Below are positions 1-24,992 of a DNA stretch of 25,713 nucleotides, piece after piece. The notes under the pieces were generated by a model. That model saw nothing but the letters and a program-made list of their open reading frames with translations, did not search any database and was not told the origin of the DNA. Origin of the DNA: a virus (Duplodnaviria > Caudoviricetes); IMG/VR virus record IMGVR_UViG_3300007640_000209, positions 1-25,713 of that record; one strand, given 5' to 3'. Made by a program: the position numbers and the translations under genes. How positions within the stretch are numbered: position 1 is the first letter of the stretch; every line of letters begins with the position of its first letter.

Positions 1-2250
1 CTTACCCGTCCCATCCATATAAACAGTCATACCATTGCCGCTTCTAGGGGAATTGCACCGTTCAAACATCGTTATACCGGTGCCATTGGTTTTAAACCAA
101 CCCATATAACAGAAGTCACCCGTCCCAAAATCAAGGTCCGAGTTATACGGCTGCTCAAGGTAGTTGCTGGTAGAGAACCCACTGTAGGCCACCAGATCAG
201 CGCCCGTTGCCACGGGGGTGCGGGTCACAGTGCCAAACACCTGTAAGCCATTGCCGTTCACGCTGCGATCTTCGTCTGCTAGGCGTACTGAGATGTTGTC
301 TAATGTAGACGAATCGCCAGCGCCAGAACCTTCCCGAATAGACAGATAAACAGTTGTGTATGAACTCACGTCAATAGTAACGGCCTTGGTACCAGTGGTA
401 GTACCAGTAAACTCTAAGTAACCTATGTTTGGAGTAGAAGAACTAGCCCCTGATCCTGTTGCCAAGCCGACTCTTGCGGTACCTACATCTACGGCAGTAC
501 GCTGTGCAGAAATGGTAACTGTATCTATGCCTGTGACATCTAGGCTTTGCCAAGCACCCATCCACACAGAGTTTGTGCCTTGTGTTATAACAAGTTCCCC
601 GCTTACGATGGCAACAGTTCCACCCGAAGAACTCCCAAGATCAGTTGTCCAAGTACCTGATAACGCAGAACTAAAATCCCCATTCGTCACCAACTCACTA
701 CCAACCAGATCGGTGTCATCGGTATCGGACAGGAAGGCACCCTTGATGTCGCCGTTCATCCAGCCTGTGTTGTAGTCGGAGGTAATCCAAGCTGTGCTGC
801 TTTTGCTGTAGTCAGCAGGGTTAAAGTCTACGGCAGTCAGCCCTGCATCGTTAGCACCTGTCGTTCCGATGTATGTACCCGCCGTCTTGGTGTTTAAATA
901 GCCTAAATAGGCTGGCGTGTCGTCATTACTAAATCCACTATCGTAATATTCAATATGTCCGTTTGATGGAGATATAGTTTCGTCTGAAGATGGGATGTAA
1001 TCATAATACCAAACAGCACCAACATTAGAATTTCCAATAACAAGGTAACCATTATTAAAGTCTACACTGGCTGTTTGAGCAGATGATGTCCTTGTAATAT
1101 CAACAACCGTCCCATCATCCTTAATCACACTCACGCCGCCAGCCGTCGCCACTGCAATCGTAGGCACAGGAAGCCCAGTCGCAGGGTCAATCGGGGCGTT
1201 GGGTAGCACGGTCATGGCTACGTCGTTGACTGTGTCGTTAATGATAGCACCAAATGGATCAGTGCCATCCCAAAGATCAATATCAGACACATTGCGACTT
1301 ACGATGCCACCACTCCTGTATCCAGAAACAGTCGCTGCGGTGCTTTCACGATACATCAGTGCCGTGTCTGAGGCAAAAGATATGTCGATAATTCCACGCA
1401 AAGAGTTTCCAGTGACCAAGTGACCGTTCTTCATCATCACGGAAGTTGGAGTATAAGACCCACCATTAATGTGAGCCATGCGAGCAATACTGCCACCTAG
1501 GAATATCATCCACATCGGTAGCGCAGGATCATCACCATCATAAATAACAATCTGATCAGCCTCAGCCACAATCACAGCAACCGCAGGGAACTCACGGCGA
1601 GAACCACGGGTCGCAGTGTTCAAGGTCTCGTTATACCAGCTTGTAGCTTGCGTGCGCTTACGCCATGCACCACCGTCGCTGTCCTTCGAGGTGTCGTAAA
1701 CGAATACGTCAACGGCAGTGTCGGCTTTGGAAGCGGCGATGGCTGCTAGATCAAAACTGTCAGTAGTTGCAGCCCCATTTACAGTCAGCCCATCGCTGGT
1801 GATAGTGCCAGTGACGTCTACGCCTGTGTTGGTGGTGGCGAGTTTGGAGGAACCATCGTAATACAGATCAACAGCGCCATCTGCTGTAGCACGAAGCATA
1901 TTCTCATCGTTATGCTTTGCAATAAACACCTGACTGTCGGACGTTATACGAAGGTTTCCATCACCATTGTCTCTGACATAACTATTCGACCCATCATGGT
2001 AAATCTGTAGGTCAGCCCCATCGCCGAATGTGGCTTTGTCGTTGTCACCGAAGGACAAGTTACCAGTCATGGTATCGCCAGCCTTGGCAACAACCTCAGA
2101 TGCTTTGGCCAAAGGATGCCCGCCAGCCGTAGAGCCATCGTGGACAACTACAGTATTCTTATCAGTATCAATCGTGATCTCAGCTTCAGCGCCAGCAAAA
2201 GTAGAATGCTGAAGAGTAGTCCCACGGCGTCGTTTAATTTGAGTGGTCAT
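1..2250 (-). CDS. Receptor-binding/tail fibre protein with Mtd_N (major tropism determinant N-terminal) domain, a marine-phage fibre segment and a LamG-like domain; 3' end truncated by the window edge (>750 aa)
   Basis: Not in the ORF track because there is no stop inside the window. Translated by hand: 750 open codons from the ATG at 2250, which overlaps the upstream TGA (ATGA). N-term MTTQIKRRRGTTLQHSTFAGAEAEITIDTDKNTVVVHDGSTAGGHPLA is Mtd_N-like. Later segments include DLQIYHDGSNSYVRD, DTSKDSDGGAWRKRT, ELVTNGDF and YLEQPYNSDLDFGTGDFCYMGWFK (LamG-like). Confidence 0.9.
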   Translation of the reverse strand, partial: MTTQIKRRRGTTLQHSTFAGAEAEITIDTDKNTVVVHDGSTAGGHPLAKASEVVAKAGDTMTGNLSFGDNDKATFGDGADLQIYHDGSNSYVRDNGDGNLRITSDSQVFIAKHNDENMLRATADGAVDLYYDGSSKLATTNTGVDVTGTITSDGLTVNGAATTDSFDLAAIAASKADTAVDVFVYDTSKDSDGGAWRKRTQATSWYNETLNTATRGSRREFPAVAVIVAEADQIVIYDGDDPALPMWMIFLGGSIARMAHINGGSYTPTSVMMKNGHLVTGNSLRGIIDISFASDTALMYRESTAATVSGYRSGGIVSRNVSDIDLWDGTDPFGAIINDTVNDVAMTVLPNAPIDPATGLPVPTIAVATAGGVSVIKDDGTVVDITRTSSAQTASVDFNNGYLVIGNSNVGAVWYYDYIPSSDETISPSNGHIEYYDSGFSNDDTPAYLGYLNTKTAGTYIGTTGANDAGLTAVDFNPADYSKSSTAWITSDYNTGWMNGDIKGAFLSDTDDTDLVGSELVTNGDFSSALSGTWTTDLGSSSGGTVAIVSGELVITQGTNSVWMGAWQSLDVTGIDTVTISAQRTAVDVGTARVGLATGSGASSSTPNIGYLEFTGTTTGTKAVTIDVSSYTTVYLSIREGSGAGDSSTLDNISVRLADEDRSVNGNGLQVFGTVTRTPVATGADLVAYSGFSTSNYLEQPYNSDLDFGTGDFCYMGWFKTNGTGITMFERCNSPRSGNGMTVYMDGTGK

Positions 2251-4004
2251 GCTGCGATGCTCCCATAGTCGGCGGTTGTTCCTGCCGCGTCAGTAATCAA
2301 TCCAAAATCCTGCAAGTAAGACAGGCTTTCAATCAGTGAAATAGCTTCATTAGCTGCAACACTAGCAGCAGTCGTTGCCGTTGCTGCTGAAGATGCAGCA
2401 GATGTTGCGCTAGATGCCGCATTTGTTTCTGAAGTAGCAGCCGCAGATGCAGAAGAAGAAGCCGCAGTAGCACTAGACGCAGCAGCAGTAGCACTAGATG
2501 CAGCAGCAGCAGCATTAGACTCAGCGTCAATAATTGCAGCTATATTAGTAACTACAGAAGTTATGTCCGAAGTGATCGCAGCGACAGCGTTAATGTTTGT
2601 TGAGTTAGAGTTTACAGAATTAACATTGCTAATGTTGCTGGCCACAGATGTGATTGTAGCAGTGTTGTCAGCAACAGTTGAGATGTCAGTAAGGTTGTCA
2701 GTTGCAATAATAATGTCTTCAAGATTTGAAGAAACATTTGTAATCGCAGCCTCAAAGAAAGCAACATTAGAAATAGGACCTATATTGCCAGCAACAATAT
2801 TAATGTTTGAGATATTACTTGCAACAGTGTTTACACCAGTGATGCTTCCAGCAACCGTTGTGACATTATATGCAGCACCAGCCACAGTGTTAATGTTAGT
2901 AGCATTAGTGTTTACGGTAGCAATAGCGCCAGTGATTCCAGCAACAGTGGAAACCTGAGAAGAAATACCAGCCACAGTCGAAACATTGTTAGCAACGCCA
3001 GCAACAGTGCCAATGTCAGCCAACTCAGCAGCAACAGAAGTAACATCAGTCAAACGAACAGCAACGTCATTCACATCGTCGATGCTATTGCCAACCAAGT
3101 TCACATTGCCAATGTTGGTGTGAACAGTGCCAACCTGAGTCAAGGATGCGTTAACAGCATTAACAGCAGAAATACTGCCAGCAACAGAGTTTACTTGCGC
3201 AATGCTGCCAGCAACCGTGCCAACATTTGAAATGCCAAGAGCAACAGTATCAATGTTGTCTAGTTTCCCAGCAACAAGAGTAACCTCGCCAAGCGAGTCA
3301 GCTACGTCATTAACATCGGAAATCGATGCGCCAACAGCGCCAATATTGTTATCGCCGCTTAGATCAATGGCAGCAATCTCAACGTAAGCAATGTTGTTCG
3401 AAACATTGGTAATGTCCGAGCCCTTGTCGCCCAAGTTGCCAAGAGCAGTGCGAACATCGTAAAGCGCGCCAATCTCTGTATCTAACGCAGCAAGCGTAGA
3501 AATATCGGCAGACAAAGAAGCAACAGTGCCGACTTCAGCCGCATTCAAAGTGGCTTCAACAGCCCCAGTGCTAGAGTTAAAGCCAAGGACTTTGCCCTTG
3601 CGGCTGTCTAAAGAAGGAAGAGCAATCGGCGGGTTTACTTCATAGTCGTTGACCTGAACAGCACGGCTGGTGCGATCATCCAAGTCAGCCAGCATAGTCA
3701 CAATGCGGTCTAGCTGGTCGTCGATAGAAGTAGAGTTGTAAGTTGCAGTAAGATCAGTGGTGCGCTCAAGCGGAGTGTCACGAACAATAACGACTTCATC
3801 ACTCAGCGTAGCGCCACTGTTTAGAGTAATGTTGCCAGTAGCGCCGCTGCCACCAGAAACACTGTAAGCACTGGTAACTGACCCGTTAATGTAAACGGTC
3901 AGATCAGTAGACGCATAGAAAACAAACGGAACAGCAAAGACTGTTTGTCCTGCTGTTGCAGTGTAAGCTATCCGTGGGTTGTTCTGCGATACATTGATTG
4001 TCAT
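2247..4004 (-). CDS. Tail fibre/adaptor protein: T7 gp17-like N-terminal anchor, 27 ten-residue repeats, Ala/Ser-rich coil, C-terminal DFG/DYG motifs
   Basis: N-term YTATAGQTVFAVPF...DLTVYING...VVIVRDTP resembles the T7 tail-fibre anchor. Decad repeats such as VAGSITGVNT. Ends LQDFGLITDAAGTTADYGSIAA. SD GAGGTG upstream. Confidence 0.85.
   Translation of the reverse strand: MTINVSQNNPRIAYTATAGQTVFAVPFVFYASTDLTVYINGSVTSAYSVSGGSGATGNITLNSGATLSDEVVIVRDTPLERTTDLTATYNSTSIDDQLDRIVTMLADLDDRTSRAVQVNDYEVNPPIALPSLDSRKGKVLGFNSSTGAVEATLNAAEVGTVASLSADISTLAALDTEIGALYDVRTALGNLGDKGSDITNVSNNIAYVEIAAIDLSGDNNIGAVGASISDVNDVADSLGEVTLVAGKLDNIDTVALGISNVGTVAGSIAQVNSVAGSISAVNAVNASLTQVGTVHTNIGNVNLVGNSIDDVNDVAVRLTDVTSVAAELADIGTVAGVANNVSTVAGISSQVSTVAGITGAIATVNTNATNINTVAGAAYNVTTVAGSITGVNTVASNISNINIVAGNIGPISNVAFFEAAITNVSSNLEDIIIATDNLTDISTVADNTATITSVASNISNVNSVNSNSTNINAVAAITSDITSVVTNIAAIIDAESNAAAAASSATAAASSATAASSSASAAATSETNAASSATSAASSAATATTAASVAANEAISLIESLSYLQDFGLITDAAGTTADYGSIAA
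2526..3335 (-). repeat. 27 in-frame 30-nt (10-aa) degenerate repeats inside the tail fibre
   Basis: From VGASISDVND to VVTNIAAIID: 270 aa in exact 10-residue register. GCAACAGT-like units recur in the + strand DNA. Confidence 0.9.
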
Positions 4005-20793: not shown

Positions 20794-21003
20794 TCAATCC
20801 CATGCTGTTGCGCCTTTCGGCTTTGGTTCTGGCTTCTTTCTAGGCAGCTTAGGCTTAGAAGAAGGGGTGATCGGTTTCTTCTGTTCAAACCAAACGAGAG
20901 GGCGGGACTCGGCGGTGCGGGTAGCACCAGTGTAATACCTGCCAGCTAACTCATGCGTCGGGCCATCATACACATCATCCGTATGCTTGATCTTCCAAGC
21001 CAT
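20794..21003 (-). CDS. Hypothetical phage protein
   Basis: 69 aa. YDGPTHELAGRYYTGATRTAESRPL core plus Pro/Lys tail; TAATG coupling. Confidence 0.75.
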   Translation of the reverse strand: MAWKIKHTDDVYDGPTHELAGRYYTGATRTAESRPLVWFEQKKPITPSSKPKLPRKKPEPKPKGATAWD

Positions 21004-21263
21004 TATGCTTTCCCCGCATTTTTGTTGCGCTTGATAGAACGATTGGCAGCTTTGCTTAGAAGACGAAGGTTGGACTTGCTGTTGTTCTTAGGATTGCCAT
21101 CCTTGTGGTCAACGTCCTTGCCATCGTTCCTCTTAGCAACGCCAGCCTTCTCAAGTGCATAACGAGCCCGCTTTCGAGCGCGGTTCTTGTCAGCACGGGC
21201 CTTGTCATACTTACCTTCGCCATTCATCGAATAGTCGCGAACGTAATTCTTACCGCTAGGCAT
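21003..21263 (-). CDS. HNH endonuclease (packaging region), probable start MPSGKNY (86 aa)
   Basis: DGKDVDHKDGNPKNNSKSNLRLLSKAANRS HNH-type motif. ATG overlaps the upstream stop (ATGCCTAG). Confidence 0.85.
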   Translation of the reverse strand: MPSGKNYVRDYSMNGEGKYDKARADKNRARKRARYALEKAGVAKRNDGKDVDHKDGNPKNNSKSNLRLLSKAANRSIKRNKNAGKA

Positions 21264-21438
21264 TGGAATAATCCACATTCAACATAGTGGTCCGGCGCTC
21301 CTGTCCAGTCCGAACACGTCCATACTTAGGCTCGCGCTTCCTCTTCTCGCTCATGCTGAGAGAAGGAAGAGGCTCTGCCTTCGGCTTGATCTGCTGATAC
21401 CGCTCTTCAGCAATGCTGGCTGCGCTACGTCCACACAT
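21256..21438 (-). CDS. Small basic protein with Met-Cys start
   Basis: 60 aa, SD AAGGA, operon packing. Confidence 0.65.
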   Translation of the reverse strand: MCGRSAASIAEERYQQIKPKAEPLPSLSMSEKRKREPKYGRVRTGQERRTTMLNVDYSNA

Positions 21439-21950: not shown

Positions 21951-22328
21951 CTAACCAAGGTCAATGCTTACCCGGATGTCGCCAGCCACCTGTATCTGGC
22001 TGCGATCTATCGGCTTGAACCCAGCGCGGTCTAGCAAATCCTGTGCCGCTTGCAGCTTGACATACTCGCTCTTGCCGTTCTTAGCCAGCCCTGCCACTGT
22101 CCCGACAGCCATAGCTGCGTGCTGACTAAATGCCTCTGCTGTCACCTGCATCAGGTATTGCTGCACGTGCGGAGTCTTCATCGCTTTCCATGCGCTAGTC
22201 CTTCCGCTGTTGCCCGGCGCGTATCCGGCTTCCTCTGCAGCTTTCGTCAGGTTTCCACCGTTGGCAACATACGCTTCCACGAGGTTACGCTGTCTTCTCG
22301 TTATTGGTCGCATTGCTGGAACGTTCAT
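21951..22328 (-). CDS. terS: Terminase small subunit
   Basis: 125 aa. ITRRQRNLVEAYVANGGNLTKAAEEAGY...KAMKTPHVQQYL HTH (Terminase_2-like); VKLQAAQDLLDRAG; SD AGGAG. Confidence 0.88.
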   Translation of the reverse strand: MNVPAMRPITRRQRNLVEAYVANGGNLTKAAEEAGYAPGNSGRTSAWKAMKTPHVQQYLMQVTAEAFSQHAAMAVGTVAGLAKNGKSEYVKLQAAQDLLDRAGFKPIDRSQIQVAGDIRVSIDLG

Positions 22329-22344
22329 TAGTGTCTCCTAACTG

Positions 22345-22367
22345 CCCCCCTCTCCCTCTCTCCCCCC
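22345..22367. repeat. Homopyrimidine mirror repeat CCCCCCTCTC-CCT-CTCTCCCCCC in the terS leader
   Basis: 23-nt pure C/T tract with 10-nt mirror arms. Confidence 0.7.
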
Positions 22368-22368
22368 G

Positions 22369-22407
22369 TTGATAGCACGTCTCTAAACCCCTGTGTCAAC
22401 GCACAAA
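22369..22407 (-). promoter_or_regulatory. Late-promoter motif copy 4 fused to a sigma70-like promoter: TTTGTGCG-TTGACA-N17-GCTATC
   Basis: The motif's TTG is the start of a perfect TTGACA. CGTGCTATCAA lies downstream, ~45 nt before the terS ATG. Confidence 0.75.
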
Positions 22408-22507
22408 CGTGAGGCGTAGAGCCCCCTTCTGGGTCTCTTCGCGTTTATTTGGGCAGAGAGGTGGGTGCCACGCTCATTCCTAGCGCCGTGCTAATGCTAC
22501 TCCGTGC

Positions 22508-22520
22508 CATTGATACAATG
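22508..22520 (+). promoter_or_regulatory. Extended -10 (TG-A-TACAAT) inside palindrome CATTG-ATA-CAATG; candidate rightward early promoter/operator
   Basis: TGnTACAAT at 22511-22519; no good -35. Confidence 0.45.
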
Positions 22521-22639
22521 TGCCTGCTGTTAACCGGGCCTAGTCAGGCCCGGGCAGGCAGGGGGAGACACGGCCTGTCTCCCCCTTGCGCCTAGGGCGC
22601 ACCCCCGCTCGACGAGAATAAATAGTGGCCTAAAGGCCA
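22521..22639. other. Cluster of short GC-rich hairpins
   Basis: TGCCTGC..CCGGGCCT-AGTC-AGGCCCGG-GCAGGCA; GGGGGAGACA-CGGCC-TGTCTCCCCC; TGCGCC-TAG-GGCGCA; TGGCC-TAAA-GGCCA. Confidence 0.75.
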
Positions 22640-22651
22640 AGATGAAAGGTG

Positions 22652-22895
22652 ATCCTCTGGACGAAAGCCGTCCGAGGGGGGCGGGGACATTCGCGTAGAC
22701 GGGGTAGAACCTGCTGGCAATGACGGATAGTGACACCCTTCTCTTCTCTGGCATTTGCTGTTCCGTGCCACTCCTGCGTCGGGCACGGGCAAATGCTGGC
22801 AGCAGGGGCCCGTCACGATCCTATGCCAGCAGAACCTACCCCGTCTTCTCGATGTCCCCATCCCGCCCCCCTCGGTCGCCTTCCGACCGGAGGAT
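22652..22895. repeat. ~244-nt imperfect inverted repeat (rod-like hairpin); candidate ssDNA promoter/single-strand origin or structured RNA
   Basis: Successive paired blocks: ATCCTCTGG/CCGGAGGAT, CCGAGGGGGGCGG/CCGCCCCCCTCGG, GGGGACAT/ATGTCCCC, AGACGGGGTAG/CTACCCCGTCT, CTGCTGGCA/TGCCAGCAG, GGAT/ATCC, GTGAC/GTCAC, GCATTTGC/GCAAATGC, CCGTGCC/GGCACGG; terminal loop ~22770-22781. Confidence 0.9.
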
Positions 22896-22951
22896 GCGGG
22901 ATGAAAAAATCAAATGGAAATGGCTAACGCCCTAAATGGAGAACCTAGATC

Positions 22952-23434
22952 ATGGCTAAGCAAATCACAGACACAAAGGCAATGGAGACAATCAACAACG
23001 AGGCCCGCGCAATCGACAGCGCGCCCACCACCTCGGATGTAGTGGAATTCGCAGCCGATGCAGCCGCAAATATCGCCGCTGTTTTCGGCACCAACGACTA
23101 CCAACTAGAGCGTATCGCCCGCCAGTTCGTGCAGTCCGCCGAGTATCTGCTACGCTACAAAGCAGAGGACGTGACCGCCCAACACGCCAAAGTTATCGAG
23201 GCCGAACAGGCCGTGCTGGATAACCGGGCGATGGCAGAAACCACGCTTGCACGCAGCCAGACCTTGCTTGAGGCAAAGCAGTGCGAGGAACGCGACCTTG
23301 CCCTTTTCCGCAAGGCAATGATCAGCGCCTACGAAGGCGTCACAGGCAAAGCCTACGAAGCCTTGCCAGTGAAGAAGGCAGCGCCCCGCGCAGAAACACC
23401 GGCCGAGCGACTAGCCCGACTGAAACGCGCATAA
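22952..23434 (+). CDS. First early gene; helical hypothetical protein
   Basis: 160 aa, SD GGAG, biased codon usage, followed by hairpin GGGCGGC-ACCTA-GCCGCCC. Confidence 0.85.
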   Translation: MAKQITDTKAMETINNEARAIDSAPTTSDVVEFAADAAANIAAVFGTNDYQLERIARQFVQSAEYLLRYKAEDVTAQHAKVIEAEQAVLDNRAMAETTLARSQTLLEAKQCEERDLALFRKAMISAYEGVTGKAYEALPVKKAAPRAETPAERLARLKRA

Positions 23435-23443
23435 CCTAACAGG

Positions 23444-23746
23444 GGGCGGCACCTAGCCGCCCTCGCCGCGCGAAATAGAATCCGGCTAGTCGCCGGATGC
23501 ACAGGATAAACTGCCAGAACCTAGAGGGCACACGACTCCTGACCTCACACGCTACGCGGTCAGGGGCTTTGCCCCCGACACCCCCAGCAGGGCCATGCTG
23601 CCCCTTGCATCCCTTGCCCGGTGCTCACAACCAACGTGGGTTTCACAACCGATAGGACCAGAACCGCCGGCGTCCCGCCGGGCGGGAAGCCAGGAACACG
23701 TTAGGGACTTTACTACGGTGAGATTGTGGTGTGCGGCTTGTCCGCA
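23444..23746. other. Second structured intergenic region with tandem G-run/C-run/C-run motifs (23563-23613) and several hairpins
   Basis: GGGCGGC/GCCGCCC; ATCCGGC-TAGTC-GCCGGAT; CTGACC/GGTCAG; GGGGC-TTT-GCCCC-CGACA-CCCCC; TCCCGC/GCGGGA; TGCGG/CCGCA; direct repeat TCACAACC x2. Confidence 0.7.
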
Positions 23747-23781
23747 AATGTTTTCAACAATTCAACTCATGGAGAACCAAA

Positions 23782-24009
23782 ATGAAATACAGTTACACTG
23801 ACATCAACGACGTTCAAATCAACATCACCTTTTCGCTTAACGACGTTCAGCGTTTGCGTGATTGTGTAAGGGACTTTGAACCTGAAGAACACAAATGGAT
23901 GTTCAAACAATTCAAAGAAACTCTCAAAGAATCGGAGTTAAAAGCTGCCGAGGCAATGGACCTTGAAGCAAGGCATATCAAACGGGAAAACAAAGATGAA
24001 ACCAATTAA
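23782..24009 (+). CDS. Hypothetical early protein (probable start MKYSYTD, 75 aa)
   Basis: SD GGAG (ATGGAGAACC) before the ATG at 23782. Confidence 0.75.
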   Translation: MKYSYTDINDVQINITFSLNDVQRLRDCVRDFEPEEHKWMFKQFKETLKESELKAAEAMDLEARHIKRENKDETN

Positions 24010-24151
24010 TCTTATCCACACACCAGACAACTGGGAAGAAATCATGGAGTGGATTCATCGCCACGCCCCAGAAGATCGTGCTCACCTTGTCACTGCTGCT
24101 GGCATGGCATGGAACCTAGCACTCAAAGCAATGGAGAACGAAAATGTATGA
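23996..24151 (+). CDS. Hypothetical early protein (probable start MKPINLIHTP, 51 aa)
   Basis: Short overlaps with both neighbours. TPDNWEEIMEWI...TAAGMAWNL looks globular. Confidence 0.7.
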   Translation: MKPINLIHTPDNWEEIMEWIHRHAPEDRAHLVTAAGMAWNLALKAMENENV

Positions 24152-24992
24152 CTTCACACCCCAAGCATGGGAATTTCCCGTCGAATCACAGCCTGTTTTT
24201 GACCAGCTAGGCAATCCTATTCAGGGTAGCCAAGCTGTTGTGCGCACTGACACCAATGAAGTGCTCGGTGTGCATGGCTCACGCTATCGTGTGCTTAGCC
24301 ACGATGATGTGGTCAACAGCCTAATGGATGCAGTCAAAGAGTCTGACCTTAGCAGTGACTACAAACTCAAGGTCAAGGTAATCGAGGGTGGTCGTAAACT
24401 TCGAGGTGAAATCTTATTTAATAATATCACCATCGAACCTGCTGTTGGCGACATAGTTCAGTATCGCATCAGCTTCTTCAATAGCTATGATGCAAGCTGG
24501 TCTTTCTCTCAAGCAGCAGATGGCCTGCGCTTGTGGTGTCTCAACGGATGCACAACGCCAATGGGCACTGGCCGTTCTGTCTTCAAGCACACGCAGTCAA
24601 TCAACGTCGAGGGCAGTGCTAAGAAGATAGCTGGTGGGCTCGACACGTTTATGAATAACCGTGAACTGTGGCAGAACTGGATGTCGGTGCATGTCACTGA
24701 CCACATGGCCGAAGCATTCTTCAAAGCAACGATTGCCAAGACAGCATCACGTCAGCAGCTAGTGATGAAGACCAACGAGAAGCAGCTTGAGAATCTGTTG
24801 GCTATCTGGACAGCAGAGAAAGCGCAACTCGGCTCCAACAAGTGGGCTTTGTATAACGCCATGACTTACTGGGCTACGCATACTCAAGACCTCAAGAACC
24901 CAGACGTTGCACGTCGCAATCGCGAAGACGCAATCGCCAAAGCAATGAAGCATGACCGCTTCGAGAACCTAGAACTAGAAGGAATCTTCTAA
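24144..24992 (+). CDS. DUF932/DUF945-family protein
   Basis: 282 aa. AVVRTDTNEVLGVHGSRYRVLSH, FFNSYDAS, RLWCLNG, KHT and WALYNAMTYWATH are the family motifs. Confidence 0.88.
   Translation: MYDFTPQAWEFPVESQPVFDQLGNPIQGSQAVVRTDTNEVLGVHGSRYRVLSHDDVVNSLMDAVKESDLSSDYKLKVKVIEGGRKLRGEILFNNITIEPAVGDIVQYRISFFNSYDASWSFSQAADGLRLWCLNGCTTPMGTGRSVFKHTQSINVEGSAKKIAGGLDTFMNNRELWQNWMSVHVTDHMAEAFFKATIAKTASRQQLVMKTNEKQLENLLAIWTAEKAQLGSNKWALYNAMTYWATHTQDLKNPDVARRNREDAIAKAMKHDRFENLELEGIF

Follow-up and report, generated by a model that had tools for sequence, protein, structure and literature searches.

A folded minus strand beside the terminase gene as a putative Frpo-like promoter for the first early gene of tailed dsDNA phages

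What does a long imperfect inverted repeat do immediately in front of the first early gene of a tailed phage? The window analysed here, a stretch of 25,713 nucleotides (25.7 kb) from the IMG/VR record IMGVR_UViG_3300007640_000209, carries the genes for the terminase small subunit (terS), terL, a portal-type connector, the capsid and the tail on its minus strand and an early arm on its plus strand, and the imperfect rod at 22652..22895 stands between the two arms. Inverted repeats, folding and relatives indicate the rod and predict the minus strand as its folding strand. We consider it probable (about 0.6), on the basis of sequence comparison, that the rod is an Frpo-like promoter which the host sigma70 RNA polymerase would use only on folded minus-strand ssDNA. 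The geometry of the fold is seen by sequence comparison; polymerase binding, the start site and silencing in duplex DNA are inferred.

No inverted repeats in the window are longer than the two arms of the rod, which is also the top self-complementary stretch there (score 202, against a median of 58 and 106 for the next). Either strand folds as a rod under both DNA and RNA parameters (z -8.1 to -10.0), and none of 200 shuffles was equally stable. These data bear out the long inverted repeat described in the initial annotation, and its box positions were also confirmed. The predicted -35 hexamer TTGCCA (22715..22720, minus) and the predicted -10 region TACGCG (22692..22697, minus) lie in the arm that would be non-template, opposite a broken gene-facing copy at 22823..22851 (plus) that reads ATGCCA (22823-22828) and TTCTCG (22846-22851) and whose minus strand is the predicted template. 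ATGCCA opposite TTGCCA occurs in this genome and in the relatives L061 and L460. In the folded minus strand at 37 C, position -12 (22697) is paired with a probability of 0.97 and -11A (22696) with 0.00, and -9G is likewise unpaired. A 5-nt bulge in the template arm (22857..22861, plus) would hold the start, with +1 at 22858 by counting and A22860 as the nearest purine, and the rod ends 56 nt before the ATG of gene 1 at 22952. A sigma70 consensus scan of 22200-23800 returned 0 promoters, a nucleotide search of 22300-23500 against 50,697 phage records returned no match, and Rfam gave nothing at gathering score in seven loci and only sub-threshold matches in the window. G-T pairs occur on both strands in this genome, as noted before (5 on plus and 4 on minus in a strand-neutral alignment), so the choice of strand needs the relatives.

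The neighbourhood of the rod is constant on its left side. TerS (21951..22328, minus; PHROG 2538, E 2e-14), the first gene of the late arm, is the fixed left neighbour and lies divergently upstream of gene 1 in all 69 loci with at least 900 nt of upstream sequence. TerS and the late genes have a predicted ordinary duplex promoter, TTGACA-19-TATCAA (22369..22399, minus), and their leader would begin with a conserved polypurine tract reading G6AGAGAG3AGAG6 on the minus strand (22345..22367), the sole match to this pattern in the window. The complements of the -35 box (TGTCAA) and of the tract (CCCCCT) were found in 54 and 55 of 59 loci, compared with 4.3 and 10 in shuffles, respectively. The leftward TTGACA with a 19-bp spacer and TATCAA recurs in many higher-GC members, and Hodr and L251 have a 17-bp spacer and TATACT. 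The tract adjoins this promoter on the transcribed strand, and several contigs end inside it; it may serve as a pac site or to prime from an R-loop or G-quadruplex.

The right side was read from a 35,292-bp IMG/VR record, which is completely identical to this genome over 22300-23500. Its early arm (~8 kb, largest ORF 282 aa) encodes gene 1, a DUF932 protein, HTH proteins, a RusA-like nuclease, an O-like initiator (PHROG 270, E 3e-36), an SSB-like protein and a RecE-like exonuclease. The scan of early-arm ORFs gave no match to a polymerase, primase, helicase, integrase or HUH protein, and neither a relaxase nor a phage RNA polymerase was found among the ORFs scanned. The largest late ORFs examined encode 1143 aa (an internal virion protein) and 1103 aa (no match). 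Among cultured phages, Pelagibacter phage Hodr comes closest (TerL 65%, capsid 53%); it grows on Pelagibacter HTCC1062 and has a 500-nt rod at the equivalent place as well as an ArdC gene. The host of this genome is probably an alphaproteobacterium. The early arm of Hodr encodes the ArdC-like protein (L039:13573-14457; PF08401 and PF18818), and that of this genome the DUF932 protein (24144..24992, plus; PF06067, E 2e-16). The ArdC family is known from plasmid leading regions. No clear prophage was found among the 66 genome loci listed, in which the close matches are short MAG contigs, probably of co-binned viruses.

To follow the rod across relatives, we started from 115 terS loci (L001-L026, L046-L123 and L244-L254), leaving out 10 terS loci at 34-35% and 55 distant genome matches. 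Ten loci with less than 500 nt upstream were removed and this genome and Hodr were added, and the resulting 107 loci were reduced to 80 non-redundant ones. A rod, scored where self-complementarity exceeded the best of eight shuffles by 20 points, was present between terS and the first early gene in 58 of these 80, Hodr included; L024 and L111, whose sequence slices were faulty, were removed from all later counts. In 59 loci the distance from the rod centre to the downstream gene 1 is 80-200 nt. The phage family is widespread, with ~2100 IMG/VR stretches matching the terS patterns and 571 of the 599 scanned confirmed. No comparable rod was found in MEP301, in Vibrio phage 1.257.O or in five folded terS loci at 34-35%. 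The pattern TTCGCAAG-N15-45-CTTGCGAA matched 120 loci in viral contigs. A separate pattern, made for the subtype in the window, matched 120 loci in metagenomes, two of which were rods beside terS, one of them identical to this genome. The rod is conserved in shape and not in sequence. Its type tracks the gene 1 family rather than terS: L009/L047, L010 and L011 have common terS-proximal sequence and differ in their rods and first genes, and rod and gene 1 appear from these sequences to have been swapped as one module. Some rods run well into gene 1 (Hodr L039:12034-12539, L084, L087, L117, L119 and L249), where the left arm is a non-coding mirror of the gene start. Long mirrors of this kind would suit a promoter on ssDNA, as they would supply gene 1 with a non-template strand.

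Within this variable sequence, one hexamer stands out. On the reverse complement of the left arm, TTGCGA is present in 33 of the 59 loci, compared with at most 13 for the best hexamer in 100 shuffles, and in 44 of the 59 within one mismatch, including the TTGCCA of this genome. A loose search of the 34 loci without the TTGCGA anchor recovered TTGACG or TTGACT at the equivalent place in seven, with leaders of 45-49 nt. A site that alternates between TTGCGA, TTGCCA and TTGACG behaves like a -35 box. By the hexamer searches, a clear hexamer-plus-bubble was not found in ~27 of 78 loci, Hodr included.

We then anchored 28 cluster representatives on the hexamer alone. Mean pairing was 0.84 at offsets 1-24, 0.51 at offsets 25-37 and 0.78 at offsets 39-48 (p 2e-4 against random anchors, a value that overstates independence because the loci are akin to one another). 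An open complex spans -11 to +2, to which offsets 25-37 from the hexamer correspond. Mean pairing across the relatives is 0.79 at -12 and 0.25 at -11A. An A is found at -11 (offset 25 or 26) in 22 of the 28 representatives and is unpaired in 16 of them; it is predicted to be paired in L061 and L460, the closest relatives of the window type, and an A deeper in the bubble is about equally frequent (19 of 28 at offsets 32/33 and 36/37). The mismatched -11A proposed at the outset is therefore common and not universal.

A MAFFT alignment of 22 rods fell out of register in the spacer, so covariation was assessed by the anchored comparison. Stem segments are only 31-35% identical between genomes, and yet they match their own opposite arm better than those of other genomes in 25-26 of the 28 representatives; the bubble does so in 14 of 28. 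Conservation in relatives, which the initial annotation had named as a check, therefore holds for the rod, the TTG hexamer and stem covariation and fails for much of the -10 region. The -10 consensus is approximately CANGCA, with -12T in 4 of 22 relatives, -7T in 2 of 22 and only -11A common, and the canonical -10 box that characterizes the Frpo/ssi class was not found in the relatives. The absence of -7T is usual in Alphaproteobacteria according to the accessible text of PMC8407463, consistent with the initial remark that their -10 boxes often lack the final T; the absence of -12T is not accounted for by this habit. So poor a -10 argues against canonical sigma70 use. It would also speak against a plain leftward promoter, which weakens the original caveat that the element is simply that in duplex DNA, and it fits a bubble that replaces melting.

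The template arm has a further feature. It carries 11-26 extra bases in 39 of 44 loci. These usually follow offset 9-11 and usually form a side hairpin, and they upset the spacing of the gene-facing copy in duplex DNA; this genome and L061 have no such insert. In the parts of the ssDNA-promoter literature that we examined, there was no precedent for a three-way junction within a promoter spacer. L362, L377 and L389 show a variant junction, in which GTTCGC/GCGAAC-type helix branches on the template side replace or add to the main stem. A held-out set came from the gene 1 search, 65 of whose 80 loci were removed as overlapping, redundant or short, leaving 15. The hexamer was present in 8 of the 15, with pairing of 0.87, 0.50 and 0.83 in the three segments, and these eight loci had the side insert in 8/8, leaders of 40-45 nt and an A at -11 in 4/8. 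A sigma54 promoter was also considered and rejected. Its consensus has a GG-to-GC spacing of 10, and the spacing here, judged by eye, is 8-9.

The relatives also allow the strands to be told apart. Isolated G-T pairs, counted as mismatches flanked by three pairs on each side, number 80 on the minus strand and 13 on the plus strand (40 versus 3 loci), and the minus strand gives the more stable fold in 51 of 59 loci. The bias could be explained by selection on the fold or by C-to-T change on exposed ssDNA, both of which point to the minus strand. As to the molecule, GCGNAGC occurs 32 times on the minus strand, in 21 of 78 loci, where shuffles give 12.6 +/- 3.8; the plus strand has 12 copies, compared with 8.2 in shuffles. 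None of the minus-strand copies is in this genome, many are found away from the rod and a few share bases with a TTGCGA. In the available text of PMC13037366, GCGNAGC mini-hairpins are described as far more stable in DNA than in RNA and as occurring at G4, ssiA and N4 sites. We regard the enrichment as moderate evidence, from sequence counts, for a DNA fold. GNRA stems on the minus strand (22, against 22.2 in shuffles) are not enriched. For cUUCGg the counts are 11 against 7.1 on the minus strand and 25 against 9.9 on the plus strand, where CTTCGG equals CCGAAG on the minus strand. For gCUUGc on the minus strand they are 58 against 12.7, with overlap with the conserved CTTGCG and with side-stem motifs.

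The alternative that survives best, though we judge it unlikely, is that the rod works as minus-sense RNA, either as an open-promoter mimic that sequesters host polymerase or as an antisense RNA to gene 1. 6S RNA is a rod with a bubble placed like the open complex. The phage rod shares this placement but differs in having no Rfam match, a conserved TTG hexamer and a fixed downstream gene. The G-T bias and the bubble geometry would fit such an RNA equally well, the RNA fold is strong (z -10) and gCUUGc is enriched on the minus strand, albeit with the overlaps given above. On the other hand, none of the seven loci has an Rfam match at gathering score, GNRA stems and cUUCGg are not clearly enriched on the minus strand whereas GCGNAGC is, the late promoter lies to the left of the rod, which places the rod outside the late transcript, and a decoy needs no fixed distance to a 5' stem-loop and ribosome-binding site. 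The structured RNA that the initial annotation called a live alternative thus keeps the wobble bias and the bubble in its favour and loses ground on the known RNA families and motifs.

Returning to the ssDNA promoter, its predicted product has the features of an mRNA leader. Counted from the hexamer, +1 falls within a few bases of a conserved 5' stem-loop, a median of 42 nt before the ATG. The equivalent stem-loop is present in most of 39 folded loci (44 anchored loci minus five off-register anchors), and here it spans 22859..22903 (plus) and would form the 5' structure of the transcript, whose leader folds with -36.8 kcal/mol (z -2.9). The ribosome-binding region is unpaired with a probability of 0.64 in the predicted short transcript and 0.24 in read-through RNA, and is more open in the short transcript in 37 of the 39 loci. 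The two exceptions include this genome, in which the leader measures 94 nt and the ribosome-binding site GGAGA (22938..22942, plus; identified by sequence) lies outside the rod (0.54 vs 0.57). Gene 1 (22952..23434, plus, 160 aa) has no Pfam or PHROG match and only weak similarity to the commonest gene 1 family of the relatives, which is modelled as a helical hairpin (pLDDT 83.7). Only unnamed atlas clusters were found for gene 1, and homologues numbered 4 for the protein of this genome and 98 for the family of the relatives. A fold search with the latter model gave no specific match, only generic helical hairpins (best Z 10.4), and a match to the TraM fold (Z 9.5) was not taken as meaningful. 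A Gam-like or anti-SOS role for gene 1 is unsupported, as the protein has no family and only generic fold matches.

Based on these features, we propose how the rod may work. As the sequence comparison shows, the left arm of the folded minus strand provides the TTG hexamer in a paired stem that holds to -12, followed by a mismatch bubble from about -11 to +2, downstream of which pairing resumes. Polymerase would bind the -35 hexamer and the ready-made fork and would need little -10 sequence beyond -11A. The right arm would then be copied into an mRNA with a 5' stem-loop and an open ribosome-binding site. In duplex DNA, the gene-facing copy would be dead because of the side hairpin or, in this genome, because of ATG in place of TTG and the loss of -11A, and the outward copy would not be strong enough to melt. 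Like Frpo transcripts, this mRNA could also act as a primer for the plus strand. Relatives favour most of what the initial annotation had read from one genome, namely the folding minus strand, the left arm as non-template, a start near 22858 and a broken duplex copy.

The source of the ssDNA is the least certain step. We favour 5'-to-3' resection from the terS-side end, be it an entering end or one cut during packaging, because the minus strand would then remain as a 3' tail. It would also be exposed, as lagging template, by a replication fork moving leftward. The RecE-like exonuclease, SSB-like protein and O-like initiator of the early arm and the ArdC of Hodr may count in favour of a promoter on ssDNA. 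A cruciform, the other route suggested initially, is improbable, since extrusion would cost ~+213 kcal/mol relative to the duplex, and the gain from supercoiling, estimated by formula, is at most ~170 kcal/mol on a 35-kb circle. The DNA of the Rhodobacter gene transfer agent is taken up as a single strand through competence proteins, and nothing found here supports such uptake of the phage DNA. A bolder version of the proposal, which we hold to be possible but doubtful, is that in these marine podophages the host first reads the genome as its minus strand: delivered single-stranded or resected from the entering end, this strand would fold into a pre-melted promoter, from which gene 1 would be expressed and the complement primed, with single-strandedness as the start signal, as in a conjugative plasmid.

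A priming role also underlies the next alternative, in which the fold would serve chiefly as a single-strand origin where RNA polymerase primes the plus strand, with gene 1 expressed from another promoter. Single-strand origins (ssos) primed by host polymerase are a known class, as the accessible text of PMC4595007 describes, none of the ORFs of the ~8-kb early arm exceeds 282 aa and those scanned gave no match to a primase, helicase or polymerase, and under a loose pattern 45 of 59 loci have tandem TACTAHA repeats, lacking a -35, on the left side of the rod. However, the leader length, the 5' stem-loop and the open ribosome-binding site point to an mRNA, an O-like initiator was found instead of an HUH initiator, and the TACTAHA repeats are missing from this genome; such an origin as the main function is therefore quite unlikely.

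Very little weight falls on a packaging or genome-end signal for the adjacent terminase. The rod always adjoins terS and contig ends cluster at the C/G tract beside it (~6 of 10 among short terS loci, 2 of 17 among loci with a truncated gene 1), but they do so at the tract rather than at the rod, and the rod type goes with the gene 1 family and not with terS (L009, L010 and L011). Homopolymer tracts also break assemblies. Hardly more than marginal, too, is the idea that the rod belongs to the leader of a plus-sense mRNA and switches translation by masking the ribosome-binding site of gene 1. Such a leader would explain the occlusion in read-through RNA (0.24 vs 0.64), the extension of the rod beyond the ATG in ~50 of 59 loci (a rough measure) and the excess of cUUCGg on the plus strand, but wobble pairs favour the minus strand (80 vs 13), no conserved rightward -35/-10 lies upstream of the rod, the site is outside the rod in this genome and the plus CTTCGG equals the minus CCGAAG. 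Similarly remote is the view that the rod is merely an inverted duplication whose arms template switching keeps in step, a by-product not selected as a promoter, since arms that track each other within genomes, rods that mirror part of gene 1 and a G-T bias that C-to-T change on exposed ssDNA could yield without selection are set against a bubble and side hairpin at fixed offsets from a conserved hexamer, which copy correction would erase, and arms only 31-35% identical between genomes.

The ssDNA promoter proposed here has its closest counterparts in conjugative plasmids. In the accessible parts of PMC9849209, PMC12672017 and PMC11541004, Frpo and the class 1-3 plasmid promoters are stem-loops that rebuild -35/-10 boxes and are off in duplex DNA, and the transcripts of plasmid ssDNA promoters can prime conversion according to the available text of bioRxiv 10.64898/2026.01.09.698686. 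Compared with what these sources give for Frpo1/Frpo2 (ssp1) of plasmid F, ssi1-3 of ColIb-P9/pESBL and classes 2-3, the phage rod is likewise a large template-strand stem-loop upstream of first-expressed genes, in which folding would rebuild -35 and -10 positions pointing at the gene, and it is also predicted to be off in duplex DNA and to have a possible primer role; as judged from the relatives, it also shares with them that the strand which folds is the one serving as template for the gene downstream. In contrast, the rod lies beside terS in tailed dsDNA phages, with no oriT, leading region or relaxase found, and has a non-canonical -10, a conserved bubble and a template side hairpin, a comparison made with the published text on the plasmid promoters. 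By analogy, the phage rod would work like Frpo but is not a member of the Frpo family, as no leading region, relaxase or canonical -10 was found.

Two other systems share part of this design. The minus origin of M13 is folded ssDNA that host RNA polymerase reads as a promoter. The RNA-polymerase-dependent ssos of rolling-circle plasmids and ICEBs1, as covered in the accessible text of PMC4595007, are likewise orientation-specific folded ssDNA read by host polymerase, whereas the phages have no HUH initiator found and the predicted product has a 5' stem-loop, a ribosome-binding site and a gene. The promoters of the N4 virion RNA polymerase, in the parts of PMC13037366 available, resemble the rod as template-strand DNA hairpins with GCGNAGC mini-hairpins in a dsDNA phage, but the N4 stem has only 5 bp and is read by a single-subunit polymerase of the phage itself, compared with a rod of 200-500 nt and a sigma70-type hexamer here. 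Host-polymerase promoters on folded ssDNA are described, in the papers examined, for conjugative and rolling-circle elements and ssDNA phages, and a survey of titles and abstract openings, in which subscription papers were sparsely represented, turned up none for tailed dsDNA phages. If the proposal is correct, an ssDNA stage would control the first gene of a widespread family of tailed dsDNA phages, through a type of promoter that has its bubble built in, needs hardly any -10 sequence and is silenced in the duplex by a side hairpin. A cultured phage, Hodr on HTCC1062, and a template of only 244 nt make the claim directly testable.

Several further features were seen around the rod. A TACTA(C/A/T)A motif lies between the terS promoter and the rod in relatives such as L046, L055 and L059 and is absent from this genome; it is often tandem, with 9-11 nt spacing and without a -35 upstream, and looks like iterons or operators. 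Reading TACTAHA as a rightward -10 was rejected, as no -35 consensus lies upstream. In this genome, short GC-rich hairpins cluster immediately left of the rod (22530-22640), and AGAACCT occurs at 22706, 22831, 22940 and 23516, four copies in 820 nt around the rod compared with eight on the plus strand of the whole window. In the late arm, a small HNH nuclease gene (21003-21278) lies between terS and terL, and a tail protein at 2247-4004 contains 10-residue (30-nt) repeats and an Ala/Ser-rich segment.
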